Of a DNA stretch of 64,000 bases, positions 4,224 to 38,971 are shown piece by piece. Below the pieces are notes generated by a model, which was given only the letters and a program-made list of their open reading frames with translations, ran no database searches and was not told the DNA's origin. The stretch covers positions 1 through 64,000 of the IMG/VR virus record IMGVR_UViG_3300042731_004843; one strand, 5' to 3'. The DNA is from a virus. The stretch's first letter is position 1. Every line of letters begins with the position of its first letter. Both the position numbers and the translations under genes were made by a program.

Positions 4224-4462
4224 TGGCCGATCCAAAACTACCTGTAGATCAGCGACAACAGGACAGGGACGCCCGCCTGGATGAGCTGAAAACGGCCACT
4301 ACCGATTGGGCCGATAAGGAAGAGAAGCGCCTCACAGACGAGGCCACTTTCTTGAGGTCGGTACTTAAGGGCCGGACAGGTGCGGGGAGACTAGCAGACC
4401 AAAACGTGGCTGACTCTTCCAAACTGGTGGTCGATGAGATCTCCAGGTTCTTGGAAGGATAG
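4223..4462 (+). CDS. hypothetical protein
   Basis: TGATG overlap with the sigma gene. Confidence 0.6.
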   Translation: MADPKLPVDQRQQDRDARLDELKTATTDWADKEEKRLTDEATFLRSVLKGRTGAGRLADQNVADSSKLVVDEISRFLEG

Positions 4463-4471
4463 GAGGACAAA

Positions 4472-5104
4472 ATGGAGAACGAAGAGAGAGTAATCGAGTT
4501 GACGCCAGATCACCGCAGCGAGCTTGTGCAGGCCAAAATCATCAAGCCGGATCAGGCCAGCATGCCCCAGAAGGAGTATGCTGCAGCCCTCGAGGCGCTA
4601 CGTCAGATGAAGTTGGCTGACGCGAAAGATAGCGTGGAGAGGCTCAGTACTGGCCTGCAGAACGCGCAGGGGGTGATAGACGGTATCCGCGCTAAACAAC
4701 GCAAGGTACACCGGCCCCCCAACACCCCGGATATGCCCATCGGAGATCCGGATGAGATGGCCGCGGAAGAGTGGAAGAAGTACGAGCAGCCGCTCACGGA
4801 GGCAAGTAAGCGCATTCAGCAGGCAAAGGCGGCGGCTGGAAAGGTAGAACAGGCGTCCAGGTTAGTACAACTCGACCCGACTATGGTGCTCAGGATCGAG
4901 CTCACCGCGGCTAAGAAGCGAGCAGCTGTGGCAGAAGAGAGCCTCGCTATCCTAGCGCTGCAAGAGGCTAGGAAAGCAAAAGACGCGGCGGAAAGAGAAG
5001 AGGCGCTACTGATGCGGGCAGTGTCTGCCCAGCTGGGCGTTACTCCGGGCAAGAACGTTCGCCTGGTGGACAAGGAAAAGGGCATTTGCCAGATCGAGGG
5101 CTAG
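4472..5104 (+). CDS. hypothetical coiled-coil protein
   Basis: AGGAGG RBS; helical composition. Confidence 0.7.
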   Translation: MENEERVIELTPDHRSELVQAKIIKPDQASMPQKEYAAALEALRQMKLADAKDSVERLSTGLQNAQGVIDGIRAKQRKVHRPPNTPDMPIGDPDEMAAEEWKKYEQPLTEASKRIQQAKAAAGKVEQASRLVQLDPTMVLRIELTAAKKRAAVAEESLAILALQEARKAKDAAEREEALLMRAVSAQLGVTPGKNVRLVDKEKGICQIEG

Positions 5105-5509
5105 ATGGCTGTCGTCGTCCGAAAACGAGCTGGCGCAGCAGTACTAGGCTGGGGCGCCGGCCTGTTGGGGACGTCCGATACCGTACGGTACCTATATCCT
5201 GGGTACAGTGATCAGCTAGCTGAAGTTCGGGAGACAAGCCTGCAGGCACCCAGATCCGGCGTTCTCAGGAATCTACAAGTGCGTCATAATGTCCCTGACG
5301 GTAATGGCGCGTCGATTGTCTACACTGCGCGTGTGAATGGCGTAGATACGGCATTGGCCGCGGCCGTGCCTTCCACGGCCGGGTCTGGGAACGATTTGAC
5401 GAACTCCGTAGCTGTCGATATTGGGGATCTGGTGAGTATCAGGGTGAGTAAGGTAGCCGGGGTCGGGAAGTCGCCAAAGAATGTCGTCGTGACTGCAGAG
5501 CTCATATAG
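5105..5509 (+). CDS. structural beta-sandwich protein, paralogous to the C-terminus of 5519-6574
   Basis: RSGVLRNLQVRHNVPDGNGASIVYT matches RAGILRNMYVRHNITGGNGNAIVYT. Confidence 0.65.
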   Translation: MAVVVRKRAGAAVLGWGAGLLGTSDTVRYLYPGYSDQLAEVRETSLQAPRSGVLRNLQVRHNVPDGNGASIVYTARVNGVDTALAAAVPSTAGSGNDLTNSVAVDIGDLVSIRVSKVAGVGKSPKNVVVTAELI

Positions 5510-5518
5510 GAGAAGTAA

Positions 5519-6574
5519 ATGGCCCTCGCGAACTACAGATTCAGGAAAACTGACGCGTCAGCTGCACTGGACGACATCAATGATAGGTTAGCCGGGAGTG
5601 CTGTCCTCGTCGATCAGGCAGGTGGACAAGTCGTCACGGTTCAGTACGATGATTCTGCTACGAACGAGGCGGACCTCATCGATGTGATGGCGCAGAAGGG
5701 GTACGCCCTCATCGAGGGGTCCGGTGGTGCTGGAGTTACTGGAACTGCTTACGATGATCACGAGCAGCGCCAGGACCAAATGAAGGCGCCGGTTCGGGTG
5801 GTCGAGTCATCGGACCTGGTTACTGCCGGATGGGTCTCGAGCGGTGGAGGCAAGAACAAGACCCTGACCAGTCCGAGCGATTCAGTTTCGTTCAATGATT
5901 TCGACAGTATCACGTTCACGGCGGGCGTTGGCCAGCGTGTGTTGCTGACCGGGCTCACGCCCGCCTCGCATAACGGTATCTACTTCCTCGAGACTGCGGC
6001 AGATGGCGCAGGCCAAAACGCTGTTTTGAAGCGTGCCTACGATGCTGATGAGGACGAAGAGGTCCTTTCCGGCATGAGTGCGTTGGTCGTAGAGGGCAGT
6101 CAAGAGAAGAAGATCTACGCCCTAAAAACGACCGGCACCATCACGGTCGACACTACCTCCCTGACGTTCGAGGCCATCCGCGCAGATGTTGATGCTGCGG
6201 AGAACCTGCTATTCGGGGCTGGGAAGCTCGTCACTTCTACTACTACCAACTACCTGTTCCCTTGTTACTCGGACAGCCTGGCCCAGACCACCGCAATACA
6301 GTTCCGCGCATCCCGTGCCGGTATTCTTCGCAACATGTACGTGCGCCACAACATCACTGGCGGCAACGGTAACGCGATCGTCTACACACTGCGTAAGAAC
6401 GGCATTGCAACAGCACTGACAGTGTCCCTGGCGTCAACAGCAAATGACGGGTCCGACTTGGTTAACTCAGTTAGCGTGGCCAAGGGCGATCTGATCGATG
6501 TTGAGGTCACCAAAGCAGCGGGCATCGGAGGAACTCCAAGAGACATCACCGTCTCGATGGAATTCGCTGCCTAG
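5519..6574 (+). CDS. virion fibre/decoration protein
   Basis: Central GQRVLLTG..ASHNGIY...KRAYDAD...SGM..LV.EG motif is typical of phage fibre proteins; AGGAG RBS. Confidence 0.6.
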   Translation: MALANYRFRKTDASAALDDINDRLAGSAVLVDQAGGQVVTVQYDDSATNEADLIDVMAQKGYALIEGSGGAGVTGTAYDDHEQRQDQMKAPVRVVESSDLVTAGWVSSGGGKNKTLTSPSDSVSFNDFDSITFTAGVGQRVLLTGLTPASHNGIYFLETAADGAGQNAVLKRAYDADEDEEVLSGMSALVVEGSQEKKIYALKTTGTITVDTTSLTFEAIRADVDAAENLLFGAGKLVTSTTTNYLFPCYSDSLAQTTAIQFRASRAGILRNMYVRHNITGGNGNAIVYTLRKNGIATALTVSLASTANDGSDLVNSVSVAKGDLIDVEVTKAAGIGGTPRDITVSMEFAA

Positions 6575-11764: not shown

Positions 11765-12291
11765 TGCCAGGACGTAAGAGCTATGGGCCGGGTGGAAAGT
11801 GGATCCATGATCGCGCCCACGGGTTGATGGATGAGCGCAAGAAGGGGAGCCTGACCGAGCGGTATGGGGACAAGAAGGGCAAGTCGATCGCCTACGCTAT
11901 CGCTACTCAACAGGCCCACAAGGTCGGTAAGAGCCCGAAAGGCTTCCGCACTACAGAGGGCGTCCGCGAGGCTAAGCAGAAGTTCGATAAGCCGAAGAAG
12001 GAGTACCAGAAGACGGCGGCTCGCACAGGACGCTTACTTAGGATGACGGATTCCATCGTCAGAAAAGGTGGAGATAAAGCTCCAGGCAAGCTGATAGATG
12101 CCGCCAAGAGACTCGGTAAAGCGGTTGAGCAGTCTAACGTCCGGCGTGGACTGGATACTGCGGAACAAGCAACCAAACACATGACCGATAAGCAGAGAAA
12201 CAATATCTTCATGAAGGCTATAGAGAATATGGGCAAGACCGGCAGCATTTCTTTGTCCTCCTTCTTTGATGAGCTGCAGCAGATCCAATGA
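11764..12291 (+). CDS. highly basic protein with C-terminal FFDELQQI tag
   Basis: K/R-rich; KSIAYAIATQQAHK segment; TGATG overlap. Confidence 0.6.
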   Translation: MPGRKSYGPGGKWIHDRAHGLMDERKKGSLTERYGDKKGKSIAYAIATQQAHKVGKSPKGFRTTEGVREAKQKFDKPKKEYQKTAARTGRLLRMTDSIVRKGGDKAPGKLIDAAKRLGKAVEQSNVRRGLDTAEQATKHMTDKQRNNIFMKAIENMGKTGSISLSSFFDELQQIQ

Positions 12292-12785
12292 GGCGAACCT
12301 TGACCACGACCATCAAAAGCTCGCTACCGGCATTCTTCGGTGAGCTCGAGAAGATTGGGCAAGCTCCGGGGTCATTAGCTCATCGGGCACAATTGGGCGC
12401 TCCGGGGGCCTGGGGCAGTCTGGGGTCGTCTGGTGGGGCCTCCTCTGGTGGGGCCTCCTCCGGTGGTGTTTCCCCGCCAACTGGGCCAGGAAGTAGCGGC
12501 GGAGCAGGGGCGAGCATGCCTAAGCCGCCGACGGCCGGAGAGATGGGGGGCGGGATGAGTGCTGCAGATCTGGGTCTTTCCGGCTCTAACCCCCCGCCTA
12601 TCCAGGCGCCCACCCAACCGCAGCAGCCCATGTCAGCTACCGGTACGCCGCCCCCAGGTGCACCGGCTACTGCGCCCGGGTCTTTGGCCAGTCCACAAAG
12701 GAAGAAGGGCTTCGGTACTGGTACACTATCGTCTGCTGAGAGCGCTGAGGTAGCCCCACCATCAGCATCTGAGTTTGGAGGCTAG
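12288..12785 (+). CDS. low-complexity G/S/P protein with FFGELEKIG tag
   Basis: ATGA overlap; disordered composition. Confidence 0.55.
   Translation: MRRTLTTTIKSSLPAFFGELEKIGQAPGSLAHRAQLGAPGAWGSLGSSGGASSGGASSGGVSPPTGPGSSGGAGASMPKPPTAGEMGGGMSAADLGLSGSNPPPIQAPTQPQQPMSATGTPPPGAPATAPGSLASPQRKKGFGTGTLSSAESAEVAPPSASEFGG
12429..12458 (+). repeat. 15-bp tandem repeat TCTGGTGGGGCCTCC x2 (SGGAS)
   Basis: Direct reading. Confidence 0.7.
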
Positions 12786-12787
12786 TT

Positions 12788-13006
12788 ATGCTGCCCATGG
12801 TCAGCTTCTTCGAGGAGATGGAGAAGATAGCCCTCGTGGGCCCGCTTATCGGGCAGGCCGTCAAGTACCCAGGCATGGTAGGCTGGCGACTGCATCAGAT
12901 CGAAGAAGGTAAAGGCGCACACAGGCGCATGATGCAGAACATAGAGCGGGGCGTTCCCGCCGGTTGGGCGGCCCTGGGGATGCGTCCGAGAGATACCAGG
13001 CGATAG
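12788..13006 (+). CDS. small protein with FFEEMEKIA tag
   Basis: GGAGG RBS upstream. Confidence 0.6.
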   Translation: MLPMVSFFEEMEKIALVGPLIGQAVKYPGMVGWRLHQIEEGKGAHRRMMQNIERGVPAGWAALGMRPRDTRR

Positions 13007-13022
13007 TGCCACGGAGGAATAG

Positions 13023-13985
13023 ATGGCGGCCGAAACTGTCAAGTTCTATGTCGTTGACCAAGACACGAACCCCGTAATCGGTGTTTTGGTTCGTGTGTTC
13101 AACGAAGCTGGGGACTCGTTCATCACCCAAGACTACTCTGTAGCTGTTGGCGGCGATGCAGTAGCGGAGGTAACGCTAGATGGGGATGATCCTCCCATTA
13201 AGTACACCATCCGGATGTCCAAGTCTGGCGTAGCCTTCGATGGGGCTCTTGGGGACAACAATAAAAGCCCTCAGCTTATCGAGGTCTACAGCCCGGCATC
13301 TGCAGCACCCAACTCGAAGAACGACTTCGACCTCCTGGCGGAGACCTTCACACGCCCGGTATCTACAGACCCTCGGCTGTGCCGCTGTAGCGGGTTCTTC
13401 AAGGACATCACGGGAGCGCCTTTGCCGAACCTGGAGATGTTCTTCATCAATCAATTCCAGCCCACGGTGGTGGACGGCAATGCGGTGCTGGGGTCCAAGG
13501 TACAGCTGCGCACCGACAAGGACGGCTACGCGGAGCTAGACCTGTACCGCAATGCCGAGTACCACGTCATGGTGCAGAGCATCCAGGCGGCCGAGGCAGA
13601 TGAGACCGGGGCCATCGTATTCCCTCGGATGATCGTGGTCCCAGATACGTCGTCCTACAATCTGGTAGATCTGCTGTTCCCCGTAGTTGAATCGGTGTCG
13701 TTCGCTCCTGATCCAGTGTCTATGGCCGTGGATTCCTACGTAGAGGTCTTGACCACTGTAGCGGCCTCTGATGGGAGGGTACTGCAGGGGACCGGTTGCG
13801 AGGACGTGCTCTACGAGAGCTCGGACCCATCGGTGGTCTCTCTATCTGTAGATCAGGACAAGTTGGTTCTTTACGGTACGGGCTCCGGCACTGCGGAGAT
13901 TACGGCAGTCAGGAAAGACCAGTCGCTTGTGATCATACCGAGCACAGGAATCACCGGGCAGCCGCTCCTAGTCACGGTGACGTAA
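13023..13985 (+). CDS. structural protein with C-terminal Ig-like (Big_2-type) domain
   Basis: YESSDPSVVSL...GTGSGTAEITA is typical of Ig-like group 2 domains. Confidence 0.6.
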   Translation: MAAETVKFYVVDQDTNPVIGVLVRVFNEAGDSFITQDYSVAVGGDAVAEVTLDGDDPPIKYTIRMSKSGVAFDGALGDNNKSPQLIEVYSPASAAPNSKNDFDLLAETFTRPVSTDPRLCRCSGFFKDITGAPLPNLEMFFINQFQPTVVDGNAVLGSKVQLRTDKDGYAELDLYRNAEYHVMVQSIQAAEADETGAIVFPRMIVVPDTSSYNLVDLLFPVVESVSFAPDPVSMAVDSYVEVLTTVAASDGRVLQGTGCEDVLYESSDPSVVSLSVDQDKLVLYGTGSGTAEITAVRKDQSLVIIPSTGITGQPLLVTVT

Positions 13986-14293
13986 TGGGCTTGTTGCTCG
14001 TGCAGCCCGTTCATACGGATGTCCATGCGATCAAGTTGCTGCTGGCCGCGATAATTCGCCGCAGTGCCTTTGATATCGCTCTGTACAAGGACGCCAAGAA
14101 ACTGGCCAACAGACGGATAGGGGAGTCGGCCTACAGGTGGATGTTCAGTGATAGGGACGACTACTACACCTCCTTCCTCAGCCTTTGCGCTATCTTGGAC
14201 CAGGATCCGGGCGTCATACGCAGGAAGACACTAAAGCTGCGCAGAGAGGATATCCGGAAGTTCGATATGGTGGACACGCATGGCCGGATATAG
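13985..14293 (+). CDS. conserved hypothetical protein
   Basis: TAATG overlap gives the true start at 13985; LLxAII...AYRWMFSD...SFLSLCAILDQDP..IR pattern. Confidence 0.6.
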   Translation: MGLLLVQPVHTDVHAIKLLLAAIIRRSAFDIALYKDAKKLANRRIGESAYRWMFSDRDDYYTSFLSLCAILDQDPGVIRRKTLKLRREDIRKFDMVDTHGRI

Positions 14294-16847
14294 CGACAGC
14301 GAAATTGAGGCCGCAGTAGGCAACTTCGTCAAGAGCGAGGTGTCTGTACAGCGAGATCCGCTGGGACCGGTGGATCTCGCTGCCAAGTTCAATGAAGTAA
14401 TCCAGCTGACTTCGTCCACCTTGATCTTTGACCCCAACGCCATCTTCTATCTGATCTTCCTGGCCACCAACAAACTCAACACATCCGTGCTGACCGCCAT
14501 AGAGTACGTAGAGGATATCCAGCAGGCCATCCAGGAAGTGAGTAAACGGACAAAGGACGTCACCAGGACTACCCTTCTGGGGGATGCGGCCGCTGCCCTG
14601 CTGACTGTGGACTCCATCCTGACCAGCAGTGATGCTATCAGCCAGACCGCCTTCGACAGATACAAGAGGGCAGTAGCAGATTTCACCGACGTGTCGTTGG
14701 CTCCGAACGTCAAAGACGCCGGCGAGATAGTTCGAGCGCCCCAGCTTGCTCGTAAGGAGGTGGTCACCACCCTCCAGAACCTGTCGGCCTTGTGGCCGGA
14801 GATACTGGATGGGCTGACTCAGATAGAGGAAGAGCTGTCTGACTTCCTGAGCCTCAACCTGCCGGTTAACTTCGTGCAGAGGTCGATACGGCGCGTGCGG
14901 GACGACCTGATATCCTGGCAGAATACATTCGAGAGCGCCAGTACGACCCGTGACGATAAGATCGCTGAGTGCAGGGACGCCTATCTGAGCCTAACCTCCG
15001 GGAAGTCGGTGCTGGACAACTACACCACAGTCACCGACCCAACGGACCCCAGAGTAGAGTCCAGCGACGACACGGTTGGTAGGGCTGCCCTACCTGTAGG
15101 AGACGAAGGCGCCCTAAACGTGCCGGAAGACACATGCACCAAGTCCGGTCCTTGGTCCGTGGTCACAGGGGTGAACGACGAGTTCAAGGTGGCGGCAGAC
15201 GGCGCCCTCGAGGTGACTTACACTCTTGTGCCGCCTTCTCAACCCAGCTTGACTGGGTTCGTAGCACACGAAGACGCTACTGAATTCTACGAGATTACAG
15301 CTGGCGTGAACGATAGGCTGGAGATAGACGGCCTAGCGCCCACCATTGCCCTGACTGCAGGCGTGGGGCGCACAACCACGCAGATAGTCTCCGACATCTC
15401 TACCTGGATCACAGCCAACTACCCAGGGCTGTACAGTGCGTCTGTGGTGACCGCGGGCGGCCGCTCCTTTGTGAAGATCACAAAGACGCAGAACGGCGTC
15501 CAACGGCTGCGTATCACAGCAGACGACGTTGCTGACGCGAGCAAGATAGAGCGCGGCTGGCAGGCCCTCGGATTTTGGATCGGGCAGGAGGACAGTAACG
15601 AGGGCATATCGGCTTCAGAGTTCGTTGAGCAGCTCAATGATGCTGGGGACTTCCTGGCGGAGACCGAGACTACCTTGTACGAGGAGGGCACCAATGGCGA
15701 GGTGACCAGTGCCACGGTCTTCGAGGTGCCCATCGATACCATCGCCTCGCTAGACCACGCCGACGACATGCTGTTGGTTCGGAACGCGGAGAATGCCGGG
15801 TACCACCGCATCGTGTCCATCGTCAGGGTGGCTGGCGTAGATCGCATAACAGTGGATGCCGGCACGCCATTCCTAGCCGTGACTACCGACCAGAACTGGC
15901 AGATCGTACGGGACGTGCTGACTATCAGGTCCAAGGCCACGGACCTGACAACGGAGCTGGTCATCGGTGCAGGCAGCGCCAACAGCACGCTGGGGTTCAC
16001 GGCAGGCACGCTGAAGGGCGCGACTACGGGCTTTCGTGTGTCAGTGAGTGGCGTAGACGAGGACTTCTCCAGACGTGACGTCGTGGAGGGGGACCTGGTG
16101 CGTGTCTCTAAGGGACCAGGATACGCAGAGACAGAGCATACTGTGCTCGAGCTCTCCGACAGCAATAGGCAGCTCGAGCTAGATCCCCCAGTGGATGTGG
16201 ACCTCAACACGACCACCTACCCGGACCTGCAGTTCGAGGTCTTGAGTGCGGCCGCGGTAGCCTACGAAGCGTTCATCGAAGAAGTGGCGGCCTGGAGAGA
16301 ACTACTAGAGGCCTCAGACTACTCCGAGGATATCCTGGAGCTCGGACGGGTGATGAACCCCCTTATCGCCAATAAGAACCCCTCCATAGCGCAGATAAAC
16401 GACGCTGAGGCGGCAGCGGACGAGCTATATGAGCTGCTTACCAACGCGTCACCTCCGGGGCTCACCGAGGTCCTGACCGGCTTTGAGGTGGAGGTGGTGC
16501 CCAGGGTAGACGCAGCACTCAACATGCTCAAGGAACGTAGCCTAGACCGCGCCTACGATGAGCTCATGGACGGAGATATCGCCTCCTTTTTCGGGATGGA
16601 CAAGGACGACGCCTCTTCTAGCGGGTACATGCTCAAGACGGCTAGGTCCGTGGTCCAAGAGGACCTACGCACATCAAAGCTGGACGACGACGTGGATGAG
16701 GTCGCACACTGGGATGAGGTCGAAGATACGGACGCCGACTTCGACTACACAGATGCCGACGAAGACGAAAACATTGAGATCCTTGGGGAGATCCCGGACT
16801 ACGATGACGAGGGGGACGTAACCACCACCGAACGGGTGAGGTACTAG
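14280..16847 (+). CDS. large acidic tail/baseplate-associated protein
   Basis: 855 aa, directly upstream of the baseplate genes; acidic C-terminus. Confidence 0.6.
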   Translation: MAGYSDSEIEAAVGNFVKSEVSVQRDPLGPVDLAAKFNEVIQLTSSTLIFDPNAIFYLIFLATNKLNTSVLTAIEYVEDIQQAIQEVSKRTKDVTRTTLLGDAAAALLTVDSILTSSDAISQTAFDRYKRAVADFTDVSLAPNVKDAGEIVRAPQLARKEVVTTLQNLSALWPEILDGLTQIEEELSDFLSLNLPVNFVQRSIRRVRDDLISWQNTFESASTTRDDKIAECRDAYLSLTSGKSVLDNYTTVTDPTDPRVESSDDTVGRAALPVGDEGALNVPEDTCTKSGPWSVVTGVNDEFKVAADGALEVTYTLVPPSQPSLTGFVAHEDATEFYEITAGVNDRLEIDGLAPTIALTAGVGRTTTQIVSDISTWITANYPGLYSASVVTAGGRSFVKITKTQNGVQRLRITADDVADASKIERGWQALGFWIGQEDSNEGISASEFVEQLNDAGDFLAETETTLYEEGTNGEVTSATVFEVPIDTIASLDHADDMLLVRNAENAGYHRIVSIVRVAGVDRITVDAGTPFLAVTTDQNWQIVRDVLTIRSKATDLTTELVIGAGSANSTLGFTAGTLKGATTGFRVSVSGVDEDFSRRDVVEGDLVRVSKGPGYAETEHTVLELSDSNRQLELDPPVDVDLNTTTYPDLQFEVLSAAAVAYEAFIEEVAAWRELLEASDYSEDILELGRVMNPLIANKNPSIAQINDAEAAADELYELLTNASPPGLTEVLTGFEVEVVPRVDAALNMLKERSLDRAYDELMDGDIASFFGMDKDDASSSGYMLKTARSVVQEDLRTSKLDDDVDEVAHWDEVEDTDADFDYTDADEDENIEILGEIPDYDDEGDVTTTERVRY

Positions 16848-33436: not shown

Positions 33437-36400
33437 ATGCGACTCAAGACCGCATTCGAGTGGGCGGCGACAGGACCCAACAGGGGTGAGCGCGTACACG
33501 ATGCTCCCGTACTGTGGCGGCCCGGCAAACTGAAGCGGTCGGATTTCCAACCTGCCGCAGGGATCAATCCCGATGTAGCCAGGGGTGTTGCTCGAGAGCC
33601 GCAAGAGAAGGTCTCCATATTCGATGGGGACGGTACCAAGCTGATGCCCCACCTACGCGCCATCCACAAGCTGGGCGGCATCTCTGCCAGTGAAGTGGGG
33701 ATTGAAGACCTGGACGGCTTCAAGACCACCGGCAGGCACTACGCCAGACAGGCGCAAAGGGCCTTTAGCGACAAGCCCGTAGATGCTGGTCCTGGCTACG
33801 GGGCAGACCACGAGAGCAATAGCACGGCCGGAGAAGGCAACGAGCCCGATACTTCAGGGGAAATTCCTATCGAGGATCCGCAGGACAGCACACCTCTGCG
33901 CGGACATCTACGTAATATCAGGGGGTTAAAGAAGCAGGGGGCTGGTGTGCTGTCTGGGGAGCTGCTGGCTGGGCTGCCCAGGATAGATGTCATCGCTGCC
34001 GAGCAACAGCGCCAGCTGCTATCCAGGGCCGTCCACGAGGCCCGTAGCCGCGGCGGGGAGCTCAGAGGGGCCCAGGAGCCCTCAGCTCTACCTCTGGCCG
34101 GTGAGGGGGCTCTAGAGGGCGCTCAGTATGTCAGGCTGTCAGAGGCCGATGTAGACGCCATCAATGCCCGCCTAGCCCGCCAGGCTATGGAGAAGAGTTC
34201 GAGTTGGGATCCGCGGCTCAAATCCGTCTCTGTGACTGGCTGCGTCAAACTGGCAGAGCCGGCGCCCCGTTTGCGCACAAAGCTATTGCCCCACCAAGAG
34301 CGGGTAGTTGAGAAGCTAAAGGGGCGGCCGGGACTGGTAGTGGCTCATGGGTTGGGATCGGGCAAGACGCTGAGTTCCATAGCCGCTGCTGTACAGCTGG
34401 AGCCGGACAGGACCAAGGTACTGGTTCCGGCGTCTCTCAGGGCCAACTACCAGAAGGAGCTGGACAAGCACGTAGAAGGTACCCTGCCCATAGAGGTGGG
34501 CTCTCTACAGGGTGCGGCCGCACGCGGGGAGGTGCCGCGTGCAGACCTACTGGTGGTAGATGAGGCGCACAGAGGCAGGAACCCGCAGTCCAAAACGTAC
34601 CAGATGATCCAAGGCGCCGAGGCCAAGAAGCGCCTGATGTTGACTGCGTCACCTACCTACAACCGGCCGTCTGACGTAGCCACTCTGGTAAACATGGCTG
34701 CTGGCGATAGGGTCATGCCCATGGGTAAGGCCTTTGATGAGCGGTACATCGCGCAGCCCAAGAAGGGTATCTGGGGCCTGCTCCCGTTCTCTAGAAAGCA
34801 GGAGGGCTTGAAGCGCAAGGGAGAGCTCGGCAAGGCTTTGTCGGAGTGGGTGGACTACCACAAGTCTGGGGGCAAGGGGTTTCCAGATGTGATGGAGGAG
34901 CGCCACGCGGTCAAGATGACCAAGCGCCAGACGCAGCTTCACGATGCTGCGTGGGGACAGCTCTCTTTGTTGTCCAAGATGCGTCTGCGCCGCGGGCTGC
35001 CTCCCGACAAGCAGGACCTCTCCAAGATCAACAACTTCCAGTCTCAGACCCGGCAGATCTCCAGTACTGAGTCGCCGTACACTAAGAAGGGGCGGGGCGA
35101 GGTATCTCCTAAGATCGTGAAGGCTGTAGGGCTCCTGGACACAGAAGCCAGGGCGAACCCTGATCACAAGGCGCTGGTCTACTCTAACTACTTGGGCACC
35201 TTGAGAGACTACTCTAAGGAGCTGGAGAAGCGGAAGGTGCCCCACGCCATATTCTCCGGCCAGCAAAAGATGCGGGACCGCAAGCAGATGGTGGAGGACT
35301 ACAACGCCGGCAAACTGAAAGCCCTGCTGGTATCGTCTGCTGGAGGGGAGGGGCTGGACCTGAAGGGCACCAGGCAGGTCCAGGTACTCGAGCCGCACTG
35401 GAACGTAGAGAAGCTGAAGCAGGTGGAGGGCCGGGCCATCCGCCGCGGTTCCCACACGCACCTGCCGAAAGACCAGCAGAAGGTACTGCTGCAGAGGTTC
35501 GAGTCCTATCCACGTGGAGGCATCTTCAGAAAGCGCCGCGGTGTAGAGCAGGTGCTGGGCGACATGGCTGCCAATAAGGAGAGGCTGAACCAGGAGATGC
35601 TGGGGCTGATGGAAAAGAGCGCAGAGCCACCACCCCCAGAAGGCGTCTCCGCCAAAGAGTGGGACGAGATACTGGACAACAAGGCCAGTAAGCCGCGTCC
35701 CCTGCCCGAGGTCATAACCAAGGACCGGCTTCGTGATCCTGTTGTCCAGCCACGCGACCTTATCCGGCGGCAGGAAACCCGGATGGAAAAGAGCGCGAAG
35801 CGCAAGTCCTGTTTTGATGAGTCCGTGAGAATAGCCGTAAAGAACCCACAGCTTACGCTAATGAAGGGGGATCCTTTCAAGGGCTCTGGAGACAGGGCCC
35901 ACTTCTGGTTGGAAGACAAGGACGGAAAGATCACCGACCCTACTGCGGGACAGTACCCGAAAAGTACGAGAGTCTATACGGGTGGACGACCAGTCAGCTT
36001 GAGTAGGAATCGTGATGCAGTAGAAAGAGCTCTGCAGAAAAGAGCATTCAAGCTGCAGGGACAGACCGAAGTGCAAGGCATTCCTGTAGCCATCGAGAAC
36101 CGCAAGGGGTCTGTACGGAAGGGCAAAGATCCGGACGGCAACGAGTGGCGTACCAAGATGCAGAACCCGTACGGGTACATCAAGGGCACCAAGGGAGCAG
36201 ATGGGGAAGAGGTAGATGCCTACGTGGGCCCGGACAAGGAAGCCCCCAAAGCGTTCGTCGTACACCAGCGAGACAAAGAGACCGGTGAGTATGACGAGGA
36301 CAAGGTCATGCTGGCCTTCAAGTCCAAGGCCGACGCCAAGAGAGCCTTTCTTGCACACTACGACAGCCCCAAGTTCCTCGGACCCATCAGTGCGGTACCC

Positions 36401-37093
36401 ATGGAGCGTCTGCGGGAGCTAGTAGAGAGCAAGAAGAGGCTGGTCAAGATCTCTTTCGCCGTGCCGGTTGTAGAGGACAAAGGTTACCAGAAGAAGGTAC
36501 GCCGGAGATTCGATAAACTGACCAAAGCGCTGGCACGTCACGGGGACCCAGTGGGCACAGGGCACAAGAGGATCGTCATCCCCAAGCGTGTTATGAAAGA
36601 GGATGACCTTGTTGGGCAGCTGGGGTTCGTTCCAGTCAAGGTGGCCATCCCGGAGGCCGGGCAGTCCCGCTTTGCCAGTTTTAGGCACCCGGACAATCTA
36701 TTCCACCTGCACGAGCACGGTGATGCGTGGGTCATGCACAAAGATGAGCACCCTGCGTCCACCATGCTGGTGAAGAAGTGGCGTATGGCCAGAGAGGCCG
36801 CTAAGAGCGCCACGGGCAAGAGTCAAGCTGAAGTGAAGGCGGCTCTCAAGGCTACGGGCGGGAAGCTCAAGCCGGTCGGGGATTTCATCAGAGGCCTGCC
36901 GCACGTGGTCACGGAGGGTGTTCCTGGAGCGTACTACTACGCCAAGGGGCAGATCTTAAAGACCAAGGGTATGCGGGAGAGGGTAGAAGAAGCTGTACCC
37001 AACGCGTACAAGCGCCAGGTGACGAAGTGGATAGAGCTAAAAAAGGCCGCAAGTGCCGGCTACGCCGATCTCGGTAGCCTAGTTCAGGAGTGA
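33437..37093 (+). CDS. polyvalent multidomain protein: SWI2/SNF2-like helicase + small Cys-His-Asp domain + phage inorganic-pyrophosphatase-like (InPase) domain
   Basis: HGLGSGKT, DEAH, TASP, GGEGLDL, QVEGRAIR; SCF...AHFWL...DPT; IENRKGSVRKG...YGYIKGTKGADGEEVDAYVGP...DEDKVML. Confidence 0.85.
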   Translation: MRLKTAFEWAATGPNRGERVHDAPVLWRPGKLKRSDFQPAAGINPDVARGVAREPQEKVSIFDGDGTKLMPHLRAIHKLGGISASEVGIEDLDGFKTTGRHYARQAQRAFSDKPVDAGPGYGADHESNSTAGEGNEPDTSGEIPIEDPQDSTPLRGHLRNIRGLKKQGAGVLSGELLAGLPRIDVIAAEQQRQLLSRAVHEARSRGGELRGAQEPSALPLAGEGALEGAQYVRLSEADVDAINARLARQAMEKSSSWDPRLKSVSVTGCVKLAEPAPRLRTKLLPHQERVVEKLKGRPGLVVAHGLGSGKTLSSIAAAVQLEPDRTKVLVPASLRANYQKELDKHVEGTLPIEVGSLQGAAARGEVPRADLLVVDEAHRGRNPQSKTYQMIQGAEAKKRLMLTASPTYNRPSDVATLVNMAAGDRVMPMGKAFDERYIAQPKKGIWGLLPFSRKQEGLKRKGELGKALSEWVDYHKSGGKGFPDVMEERHAVKMTKRQTQLHDAAWGQLSLLSKMRLRRGLPPDKQDLSKINNFQSQTRQISSTESPYTKKGRGEVSPKIVKAVGLLDTEARANPDHKALVYSNYLGTLRDYSKELEKRKVPHAIFSGQQKMRDRKQMVEDYNAGKLKALLVSSAGGEGLDLKGTRQVQVLEPHWNVEKLKQVEGRAIRRGSHTHLPKDQQKVLLQRFESYPRGGIFRKRRGVEQVLGDMAANKERLNQEMLGLMEKSAEPPPPEGVSAKEWDEILDNKASKPRPLPEVITKDRLRDPVVQPRDLIRRQETRMEKSAKRKSCFDESVRIAVKNPQLTLMKGDPFKGSGDRAHFWLEDKDGKITDPTAGQYPKSTRVYTGGRPVSLSRNRDAVERALQKRAFKLQGQTEVQGIPVAIENRKGSVRKGKDPDGNEWRTKMQNPYGYIKGTKGADGEEVDAYVGPDKEAPKAFVVHQRDKETGEYDEDKVMLAFKSKADAKRAFLAHYDSPKFLGPISAVPMERLRELVESKKRLVKISFAVPVVEDKGYQKKVRRRFDKLTKALARHGDPVGTGHKRIVIPKRVMKEDDLVGQLGFVPVKVAIPEAGQSRFASFRHPDNLFHLHEHGDAWVMHKDEHPASTMLVKKWRMAREAAKSATGKSQAEVKAALKATGGKLKPVGDFIRGLPHVVTEGVPGAYYYAKGQILKTKGMRERVEEAVPNAYKRQVTKWIELKKAASAGYADLGSLVQE

Positions 37094-37095
37094 TC

Positions 37096-37611
37096 ATGCG
37101 CGCTATCATCGTAGCACTCATTCTTCTGTGGCCTTGTATAGCTATTGCCGCAGATCAGTGCACCAAGCAGATCTACAGCGACCCCAATGTAGAGCCTGAC
37201 TACAGCTGCCCAGGTCCAGGCGAAGATGCCATGGTCCCCAAGATCCAGCTGAGGGCATCTGTAGAGCTCAAGGCTAAGCAGGCATCTCCCTGGTCGGGCA
37301 TCTTGATGGACAAGAACCGGGTGCTGGTTCTCGGTCTGCGTATCAAGGGCTTGCGCCGCATCAGGTGGCAGGAGAACAATACTTGCCGGGAGTCGTTGGC
37401 GGCAGAGAAGAAGTTCATGGAGGACTCGTTCAACGCCACGATCAAACTGCGTACTTCTCAGAGGGACAGCTACAAGGCACAGAATGTAGATCTGCGGAAA
37501 GAGATCGTACGCCTGAATAGATGGTACCGATCTCCCACCTTCTGGTTCGTCACTGGGGTCTTGGTGACGGCCGCTGGGGCCACGGCCCTGGCATACGGGT
37601 TGAGGAAGTAA
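37096..37611 (+). CDS. signal-peptide protein with C-terminal TM (spanin-like)
   Basis: MRAIIVALILLWPCIAIA signal; WYRSPTFWFVTGVLV C-terminal anchor; AGGAG RBS. Confidence 0.5.
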   Translation: MRAIIVALILLWPCIAIAADQCTKQIYSDPNVEPDYSCPGPGEDAMVPKIQLRASVELKAKQASPWSGILMDKNRVLVLGLRIKGLRRIRWQENNTCRESLAAEKKFMEDSFNATIKLRTSQRDSYKAQNVDLRKEIVRLNRWYRSPTFWFVTGVLVTAAGATALAYGLRK

Positions 37612-37614
37612 AGA

Positions 37615-37638
37615 AGAGAGGGCTTCTACGCCCTCTCT
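37615..37638. terminator. intrinsic terminator hairpin between convergent blocks
   Basis: AGAGAGGGC-TTCTAC-GCCCTCTCT 9-bp stem; followed by TCTTTACTT on the minus strand. Confidence 0.7.
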
Positions 37639-37670
37639 CCGATCAGCTTATCCCTTCAACTGGCGGGTTC

Positions 37671-37880
37671 TTACAGGGACGAGGCCAGTATGGCCCGCAG
37701 AAGGGTCATGCGGTCTAGGTCTGGGTCCTCCAGCGGTATGTCGTTTACCGTCTGGGAGGCCAGCTCTCTTAGTTCGTCCATGTTCATTTTGGCGAGTTGT
37801 TCCTCAGTGACCTGTAGCAGGTCCTCGGGGCCTGGGAGCAGTGGATCGCGGAGATCTAGTCCCCGCTGTCGTCGTTTCCC
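37671..37880 (-). CDS. -1 frameshift extension of the 37856-38401 gene (HeH/Rho-N-like domain)
   Basis: In the -1 frame from the GGGAAAC slippery site; encodes VTEEQLAKMNMDELRELA...DRMTLLRAIL. Confidence 0.6.
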   Translation of the reverse strand, partial: GKRRQRGLDLRDPLLPGPEDLLQVTEEQLAKMNMDELRELASQTVNDIPLEDPDLDRMTLLRAILASSL

Positions 37881-37897
37881 TGGGCGTCCCACTCCTC
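37848..37897 (-). other. programmed -1 ribosomal frameshift signal
   Basis: GAGGAG-N11-G GGA AAC (37880-37874)-N7-hairpin GCGGGGA-CTAGA-TCTCCGC. Confidence 0.65.
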
Positions 37898-38401
37898 TTG
37901 GAGCTCCTCCACACGAGCTTCCAGCGCATCGGGCTCATCGACAGCCTTGTAGACATCGGTGAGCAGCCCGAAGATCATGTAGAGCTGCCGGCGCGCCTCG
38001 GTCAGATCTGCCTCGAGGGTCTCGATGGTCGACTTGAGTTCCTCGGTCGACTCGTCCACGGTCTTACCGACCGCGTCGATGCGCCGCAGGACCTCGTCCA
38101 CCGATGGGTCCCCACCGCCCGCGCTTTCCTGGGGCGGCTCCTCTTTGGCGGCCCTGCCACGTCCAGCAGCCGGGGCACGGCCGGCTGCTGCTCGGCCCCT
38201 TCCCCGACCTTCCTGCTTACCGTTGTCCTTGGACTTGCCCTTTCCGCCTTCCTGGGCCTGCAGGATGCGGGTGATGAGTTCTCCAGACGTGGTGTTGGAG
38301 CACTCCTTGTTGTCGATGCCCAGCACGGCGATGGCAGTCCTGCGCAGGTCGACTCTTGCCATCCCCTTGAGGTCCTCTTGGGTGTATTTCTTGTCAGACA
38401 T
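37856..38401 (-). CDS. HeH/Rho-N-like N-terminal domain + RG-rich linker + coiled coil
   Basis: YTQEDLKGMARVDLRRTA...GELITRILQAQ; GRGRGRAAAGR linker. Confidence 0.65.
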   Translation of the reverse strand: MSDKKYTQEDLKGMARVDLRRTAIAVLGIDNKECSNTTSGELITRILQAQEGGKGKSKDNGKQEGRGRGRAAAGRAPAAGRGRAAKEEPPQESAGGGDPSVDEVLRRIDAVGKTVDESTEELKSTIETLEADLTEARRQLYMIFGLLTDVYKAVDEPDALEARVEELQEEWDAQGNDDSGD

Positions 38402-38636
38402 GTCTTCTCCGTCTCCTAGGTTGTATTTTGGCGCGTCCTGAGCTCAGGTTTTGTACCTCGTACCGTAGCGCCCCCGGTCCGAGACCCTCAATGATGGTTC
38501 TTCGGGCGTCCATGTTGGCGATATTTACCGGACGCCAGTCCCCACAACACTCACCGTTCTCGAGCATATACTCGGTGACGGTCTTGCAGTCCCTGAGACG
38601 CCGACAGCACGTACATGCTTTCGGTATACCCGCCAT
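38394..38636 (-). CDS. small Cys-rich protein
   Basis: MAGIPKACTCCRRLRDC; TGATG overlap. Confidence 0.55.
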   Translation of the reverse strand: MAGIPKACTCCRRLRDCKTVTEYMLENGECCGDWRPVNIANMDARRTIIEGLGPGALRYEVQNLSSGRAKIQPRRRRRHV

Positions 38637-38971
38637 CAGCACTCCTTTCGGACCTTCTCCATTATGTCGTCGTCGCACTCTTCAACAGCGCAGACATACG
38701 CTCTCGCTGCCGGGCAGATCCAACACGGGCAGTGCTCCTCAGTGCAGTCCAGCTGCTCTTTCACGGAGGGCCACTCTTCGATCATCCGCATCATGGCGTT
38801 ACGATCGGCGTCCGCGGGATCTTGCGGCAGGTCGTCAGGATGTACCCGTCCCTCCAGCGCGTCTATGAGCAGGTCTCTTCCCAGCCCCCGATGAGCCCCT
38901 AAGAAACCTCTCTGTGAGCATAGAGCGGCCAGTTCTGACAGGTTTAGTTGGCTGTAGTCCACGTCGTTCAT
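38636..38971 (-). CDS. HeH-like + Cys-rich hypothetical protein
   Basis: YSQLNLSELAALC..RG; C-terminal CTEEHCPCWIC; AGGAGG RBS. Confidence 0.6.
   Translation of the reverse strand: MNDVDYSQLNLSELAALCSQRGFLGAHRGLGRDLLIDALEGRVHPDDLPQDPADADRNAMMRMIEEWPSVKEQLDCTEEHCPCWICPAARAYVCAVEECDDDIMEKVRKEC

Follow-up and report, generated by a model that had tools for sequence, protein, structure and literature searches.

A probable programmed -1 ribosomal frameshift near the 3' end of a non-structural gene in a large uncultured phage

Described frameshift systems and the present locus

Phage frameshifts are known mainly from tail-chaperone and capsid genes (PMC5009743). In tail chaperones of the lambda G/GT type (slip site G_GGA_AAG; GGGAAAC in KL1 and HCTV-1), ribosomes make a -1 slip on G_GGA_AAx when the stop of the upstream open reading frame (ORF) is only a few codons away; the short product predominates, and a minor one carries a new domain in its C-terminal extension. 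Here we consider a candidate signal alike in both respects in a 64,000-nucleotide (nt) stretch of viral DNA, positions 1 to 64,000 of the record IMGVR_UViG_3300042731_004843 (hereafter the window), which is part of a 108-kb IMG/VR virus record with an estimated completeness of 58%. The signal lies near the 3' end of a minus-strand gene (38401-37856) for a protein of 181 amino acids (aa). The G/GT gene pair lies directly upstream of the tape-measure gene or one gene away from it, whereas this gene is the final one of a replication/recombination operon on the strand opposite the tail genes, and the module that would be added is Rho-N/SAP-like and resembles the protein's own N terminus rather than being a tail-assembly domain. 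No tail chaperone match to the 181-aa protein was found in Pfam or PHROG.

The window's heptamer, G_GGA_AAC, is a recognised -1 site that ranks among the shiftiest heptamers on eukaryotic ribosomes and acts as the G-T site of the archaeal virus HCTV-1 (Atkins et al. 2016, PMC5009743). In Burkholderia phage KL1, GGGAAAC directly before TGA is the predicted G-T site (PMC3483164), and a stop codon likewise adjoins the 3' side of the heptamer in L004, the most distant of the relatives compared below.

Two further groups of systems bear comparison. The E. coli dnaX tau/gamma site and those of IS3/IS911, built from a Shine-Dalgarno (SD) sequence, A_AAA_AAG and a stem-loop, share with the present locus a heptamer followed by a stem-loop, and the SD-like GAGGAG found 11 nt upstream of the heptamer in the window and in its relative L001 is close to the dnaX spacing. 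The differences are that the dnaX shift truncates the protein whereas a shift here would extend it, that the SD-like element is not kept in the relatives L002, L003 and L004, and that the A-site codon is AAG (Lys) in the dnaX and IS systems but AAC or AAT (Asn) here. In the 10A/10B capsid genes of T7 and T3 and in the capsid gene of Lactobacillus phage A2, as proposed here, a -1 shift close to the 3' end gives part of the molecules an optional domain at the C terminus (PMC5009743), but those are virion proteins, with an Ig-like extension in T3 and A2, whereas the present gene belongs to a non-structural operon and its predicted extension is a small helical module.

We conclude, with a probability of roughly 85%, that the locus carries a classical programmed -1 ribosomal frameshift, built from an X_XXY_YYZ heptamer, a spacer and a stem-loop toward the 3' end of a non-structural phage gene. 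On the sequence evidence set out below, the last gene of the operon very probably yields one message and two proteins. The novelty lies not in the mechanism, which is canonical, but in the gene family and in where it occurs, as a non-structural gene that closes a replication/recombination operon. A literature search for frameshifting in a phage protein with HeH (helix-extension-helix), SAP or Rho_N domains returned no description.

In the window, the zero-frame gene for the short, 181-aa isoform occupies 37856-38401 on the minus strand, running from an ATG at 38401 to a TAG at 37858-37856. The slippery heptamer G_GGA_AAC (37874-37880) lies in the zero-frame phase CAG GGA AAC. It is preceded, across 11 nt, by the SD-like GAGGAG (37892-37897), a possible local stimulator kept at this spacing in L001 alone among the relatives, and is followed by a 7-nt spacer, GACGACA (37867-37873), and a stem-loop (37848-37866). 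The stem-loop pairs GCGGGGA (37866-37860) with TCTCCGC (37854-37848) in 7 bp that include one G-U, and its 5-nt loop, CTAGA (37859-37855), contains the zero-frame TAG; the first 40 nt past the heptamer have a minimum free energy (MFE) of -12.2 kcal/mol, with two outer pairs counted too. After the slip, the -1 frame begins with CGA (37874-37872) and extends for 67 codons (37674-37874) to a TAA at 37671-37673, or for 69 open codons when counted from GGG to TAA. The long isoform would thus have 176 zero-frame and 67 -1-frame residues, 243 aa in all, and its predicted tryptic peptide across the transframe junction is VEELQEEWDAQGNR. Reading the minus strand directly, we recovered every element of the signal where the initial annotation had placed it, from GAGGAG to the TAG in the loop, together with the open -1 frame that ends just ahead of a terminator, and the isoform sizes it had given, 181 and about 243 aa, agree with these counts. 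That terminator-like hairpin (37613-37640, minus strand) has an 11-bp stem and a T-rich tail, and stands between the two convergent operons about 30 nt past the -1 stop, so that the mRNA should span the entire extension. An identical stem sequence occurs at the equivalent place in L001.

Within this one sequence the signal is set apart from chance in part. In-phase heptamers of the form XXXYYYZ, with Y being A or T, occur 13 times in the ~18,900 codons of the window's genes, and GGGAAAC at 37880-37874 is alone among them in lying no more than 10 codons from its gene's stop and opening a -1 ORF of at least 60 codons. Under the frameshift interpretation, most ribosomes would read CAG GGA AAC and terminate six codons on at the TAG, giving a 181-aa protein composed of an HeH-like N-terminal module, a disordered linker rich in Arg and Gly (RG-rich) and a helical hairpin. 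In some ribosomes, pausing with the hairpin at the mRNA entrance, the tRNA-Gly paired to GGA and the tRNA-Asn paired to AAC would both move back by one base to GGG AAA. Reading would then resume in the -1 frame at CGA for 67 codons, and the product would be a protein of 243 aa whose C terminus holds another Rho-N/SAP-like module. We infer that such slippage occurs and that it sets the ratio of the two forms.

Conservation of the slip site and of the -1 frame

Searches of JGI, ENA and Logan metagenomes gave 15 clusters homologous to the 181-aa protein, 168-208 aa long and 36-53% identical to it, which together with the window's own make up a 16-cluster alignment (A1). A Gly-Asn pair, the one encoded at the slip site, is invariant in this alignment (16/16 clusters), a Gln precedes it in 15 of 16, and it stands 0-6 residues from the C terminus, followed by a short variable acidic tail and then the stop. 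Upstream of the heptamer the family conserves an E-E-W motif, whose Glu-Glu is encoded by GAGGAG in the window.

The DNA itself was compared at five loci from independent metagenomes, namely the window, L001 (a 117-kb IMG/VR contig) and L002-L004 (JGI metagenome contigs), among which protein identity is 34-52%, with L004 the most distant at 34%; a further locus, L005, ends before the slip site and was left out. The heptamer is in phase at all five, as GGGAAAC in four (the window and L001-L003) and as GGGAAAT in L004, where the site reads CTG GGA AAT TGA, still an X_XXY_YYZ heptamer, with the stop adjoining it. The Gly codon before the Asn is GGA at every locus, and the base 5' of GGA is G at every locus; GGA accounts for 15% of the Gly codons in the window's genes. 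The zero-frame stop follows 0-15 nt past the heptamer. The initial annotation had proposed conservation of GGGAAAC in related phages as a check, and the heptamer is indeed kept in phase at 5/5 DNA loci, while its conservation in the wider family is implied by the invariant Gly-Asn (16/16) and by a Gly-Lys at the junctions of -1 ORFs.

The reading frame downstream is conserved as well. At all five loci the -1 frame is free of stops for 64-71 codons, as against 2-7 and 1-2 stops in the other two forward frames, and it is the best conserved forward frame along its full length, including the stretch ahead of any internal Met. The -1 peptides are homologous over their whole length (alignment A2), with pairwise similarity far above that of the other frames. 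The -1 frame is open from only 5 codons ahead of the heptamer in L002 and from only 2 in L003, and the zero-frame stop of these loci comes 3-4 codons past the heptamer, so the change of frame must fall within about 8 codons centred on the heptamer. An A2 profile search of a protein collection found 12 further called -1 ORFs, to which gene callers had assigned starts at inconsistent positions; Gly-Lys stands at the junction in each of the seven that extend to it (P0018, P0019 and P0022-P0026, P0022 being the -1 ORF of L002 itself). Viral contigs gave no match in a single-protein search; an A1 profile search of them matched L001 as the sole contig, and a DNA pattern spanning the E-W...GGGAAAC junction led to the same L001 contig only, A2 being too variable for a contig profile scan. 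Sequence comparison across these loci thus shows the signal to be in phase and to be conserved along with the -1 ORF.

In L001 the -1 frame is also open for 166 codons upstream of the heptamer, and ORF finders list a 209-aa ORF starting at GTG there (5084-5713, plus strand), which overlaps most of the real gene. This ORF is a GC-rich artefact that could mislead annotation.

A rival explanation dispenses with frameshifting and makes the locus two separate genes, the downstream ORF starting on its own either at a GTG at 37892, four codons before the heptamer (72 aa), or at the ATG of a MNMDEL sequence (38 aa). The window has GGAGGAG 11 nt ahead of this GTG and GAGGAA some 12 nt ahead of the ATG, which is codon 31, and ORFs of just these sizes are called by gene callers (P0018 and P0019, 72 aa; P0020, 38 aa). 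However, the (A/G)TG four codons before the heptamer simply arises from the conserved Glu-Trp codons. L004 has no start codon upstream of the heptamer, and in L003 the (A/G)TG is separated from the heptamer by a TGA two codons ahead of the latter, with no ATG, GTG or TTG until codon 40 of 64, which excludes independent initiation at that locus. The start at MNMDEL, an option that the initial annotation had itself raised, is not conserved either, with Leu replacing the Met in L002 and L003. Moreover, conserved P-x-P-P, D-L-L and E-x-L motifs precede every internal Met, and a start at MNMDEL would remove the first helix of the modelled module. We therefore regard separate genes as distinctly improbable.

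A stem-loop begins 5-8 nt past the heptamer at all five loci (5/5). For the first 40 nt past the heptamer, the MFE is -12.2 kcal/mol in the window as given above, -11.9 in L001, -17.6 in L002, -17.7 in L003 and -19.0 in L004; the L001 hairpin itself spans 40 nt and reaches -19.9 to -23.6 in offset and 60-nt windows. In the order window, L001, L002, L003 and L004, the hairpin z-scores are -0.66, -3.2, -1.6, -2.6 and -3.6 and the energy ranks among in-gene segments are 68, 11, 0, 18 and 0 of 160, with a Fisher combination of the five ranks of p ~5e-4. The stems are unrelated in sequence and, owing to indels in the extension, are placed on non-homologous codons; what is kept is therefore their distance to the slip site and not their sequence, and this constancy is hard to explain by protein coding alone. 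The RNA element has no matching family in Rfam.

Several observations weigh against a programmed frameshift or against the function we attach to it. The window's own hairpin, at -11.8 kcal/mol in a 40-nt segment, has a z-score of -0.66 when dinucleotide-shuffled sequences serve as the reference, and its energy is matched by 68 of 160 segments of 40 nt within the gene; since this hairpin is unremarkable, the case depends on the comparison with relatives, and that comparison covers five loci at the DNA level. GAGGAG lies 11 nt from the heptamer in only two of the five (the window and L001); L002 lacks it, L003 has it at a distance of 20 nt, and in L004 AGGA is all that is left. The SD of the initial annotation is thus present in the window at the place described and could act as a local aid there, but the comparison does not support it as a conserved element. 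The proposal of nucleic-acid binding and bivalency draws on weak small-domain scores (Foldseek E >1, VIA Z 5.4; see below). Finally, heptamers ending in AAC shift far less in E. coli than those ending in AAG, G_GGA_AAG being highly shift-prone (PMC5009743), so that the efficiency of frameshifting at 37880-37874 may be low.

Two of these points, the window hairpin that is no better than chance and the weak shifting of AAC-ending heptamers in E. coli (PMC5009743), also favour a silent site, at which only the 181-aa protein is made and the ORF and the Gly-Asn are conserved for other causes, such as a need of the protein for Gln-Gly-Asn or an RNA element in a long 3' untranslated region. A constraint of that kind does not call for the rare GGA codon at 5/5 loci with a G before it at 5/5. 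Constraint at the protein level also leaves unexplained why the -1 frame is the sole stop-free, protein-homologous frame at all five loci, and why it opens merely 2-5 codons before the heptamer in L002 and L003. We accordingly give a silent site little credence.

The remaining alternatives fare worse. A 1-nt indel, whether a mutation or a sequencing error, that interrupted a ~243-aa ORF in a single sequence would yield a -1 ORF continuing the gene, but the same break recurs at the same heptamer in five independently assembled loci, which excludes a broken gene or an assembly error in practice and makes this explanation very improbable. The break is further implied in the 16 zero-frame clusters and the 7 junction-reaching -1 clusters from JGI, ENA and Logan, and no uninterrupted homologue turned up in the protein searches: no in-frame fused homologue of ~243 aa was present among proteins of 99-317 aa or of 318-2000 aa, and among 1.84 billion representatives the extension matched only short stand-alone ORFs, apart from P0021 (788 aa), which was rejected as a low-complexity repeat protein. 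Transcriptional slippage and termination-reinitiation at the TAG are both known routes to an overlapping frame (PMC5009743), but we consider their chance here close to negligible, as reinitiation finds no start codon near the zero-frame stop in the window, L001 or L003, and for transcriptional slippage the longest homopolymer at the site is 3 nt. A homopolymer of that length is far too short for slippage by RNA polymerase.

Architecture of the two predicted isoforms

Given the preference for a programmed ribosomal frameshift, we consider what the two products would look like. AlphaFold2 (AF2) modelling on A1 predicts a helix-extension-helix-like N-terminal module at residues 8-51 (38249-38380, minus strand), a bundle of short helices with a predicted local distance difference test (pLDDT) score >90. 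A disordered linker rich in Gly, Arg, Lys and Ala follows at residues 54-96 (38114-38242, minus strand; pLDDT <50), with a conserved GRGRGR motif; G80 is invariant and R81 nearly invariant in A1. Beyond the linker the AF2 model shows two long helices, residues 101-151 and 157-173 (37883-38101, minus strand), arranged as a coiled-coil-like hairpin. Pfam matches of this hairpin region are weak and of coiled-coil type only. One of these, to Phage_scaffold (PF06810; E 0.0027, 18.1 bits against a cut-off of 35), arose in 1 of 16 members and in the coiled-coil part only and was set aside as noise; an identity as a phage capsid scaffolding protein is rejected because the match is below the cut-off in a single member and the gene lies in a replication/recombination operon.

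The extension is modelled, by AF2 on A2, as a second helix-extension-helix-like module at extension residues 24-69 (37674-37811, minus strand), with helices at residues 26-31, 34-43 and 57-68 and a pLDDT of ~70-80. In Foldseek comparisons both modules fit the Rho N-terminal helix bundle (Rho residues 1-43), with a root mean square deviation (rmsd) of 1.3-1.8 A over 42-44 residues and E >1; for the N-terminal module on the Rho N-terminal domain the rmsd is 1.3-1.6 A over 42-44 residues, DEK/SAP domains are matched too, and all Foldseek E values are >1. A VIA search with the extension, which does not depend on Foldseek, ranked Rho (1a62_A) first, with Z 5.4 and an rmsd of 1.4 A over 43 residues, low scores being expected for a domain of ~45 residues, and the next matches were LEM and SAP domains of emerin, FAN1, Ku70, SLX4 and MANF. 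The initial annotation had noted that the extension resembles the protein's own N terminus, and the two are weakly related by hhalign (probability 57%, E 1e-4), besides superposing on the same Rho bundle and on SAP and LEM domains.

Both modules superpose, at low scores, on solved members of the Rho-N/SAP/LEM group (FAN1, Ku70, SLX4, emerin, DEK), but they differ from these in that no Pfam model reaches threshold, and the likeness is one of fold and not an established homology. Searches of Pfam, PHROGs and PDB sequences found no family at significance for the protein or the extension. Rho_N of Pfam gave E 0.082 in one of the 16 members, below threshold, and nothing for the extension; an ESM Atlas feature search scored 0.77, below a useful score, and its structure rows list Rho_N, SAP and HeH clusters at a TM-score of ~0.3. 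The predicted models therefore support a Rho-N/SAP-like, helix-extension-helix reading of both modules at the level of the fold. Rho-N, SAP and LEM domains bind nucleic acid, and the modules modelled here may do the same. If so, the long form would be a bivalent version of the short form, able to serve as a bridge or adaptor in the replication or recombination of phage DNA.

Genomic setting and significance

The operon that the frameshift gene closes runs on the minus strand from ~54143 and includes a ResIII helicase, a DnaB-like helicase, Pol A, a PD-(D/E)XK nuclease and RusA. The ATG of the 181-aa gene overlaps the preceding ORF by 8 nt. Tail and baseplate genes lie on the plus strand and extend to 37611. 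Among GenBank phages we found no DNA similarity of note and no tblastn match to the 181-aa protein, and the nearest Pol A is no more than 32% identical, so the phage has no cultured relative. Among genome contigs we found no relatives and no hint of a prophage or a host, and no tRNA genes were found in the window.

With regard to the tail genes of the window, the region upstream of the putative tape-measure gene served as an internal control, and neither an in-phase XXXYYYZ heptamer nor an obvious G/GT pair was found there (12288-14300, including 13023-14293). A 320-aa ORF upstream of that gene (ORF, 13023-13985, plus strand; putative tape measure, 14280-16847) shows, by eye, a C-terminal Ig-like repeat of the Big_2 type. 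At about 18 codons before the stop of a further ORF (33437-37093, plus strand), the -1 frame runs for 12 codons and then ends, and slippage there would merely exchange the last residues.

The convergent neighbour of the frameshift gene (37090-37611, plus strand) encodes 173 aa with a hydrophobic, signal-like N-terminal segment containing a Cys, a coiled-coil-like middle and a C-terminal transmembrane helix. Homologues of this protein are kept at the convergent position in L001 (5774-6289, minus strand) and L004 (1836-2405, minus strand), and no Pfam or PHROG match was found for it; it could be a unimolecular-spanin-like or other envelope protein. Two small minus-strand ORFs lie 5' of the frameshift gene, one Cys-rich and of 94 aa (38394-38678), the other of 111 aa (38636-38971), both with no match in Pfam or PHROG, and L001 has ORFs of similar size at matching positions (4613-4999 and 4419-4760).

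At present gene callers divide this gene in two, with a protein of 181 aa and a spurious ORF of 38-72 aa, and it should be annotated as one recoded gene. The five loci, with differing hairpins near a fixed distance from one heptamer, form a natural series for studies of stimulators that act with an Asn codon in the A site, and the function of the protein would seem to rely on a set proportion between its one-module and two-module forms. More tentatively, and with the odds in our view rather against it, recoding may be a lineage-wide feature of these large uncultured phages, in which the frameshift would set the ratio of monovalent to bivalent forms of a Rho-N/SAP-like, RG-rich, coiled-coil protein and the bivalent form would bridge or tether phage DNA (or RNA) during replication or recombination. 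If true, this would be regulatory frameshifting in a non-structural phage gene, a logic like that of G/GT acting on nucleic acid and not on tail assembly.

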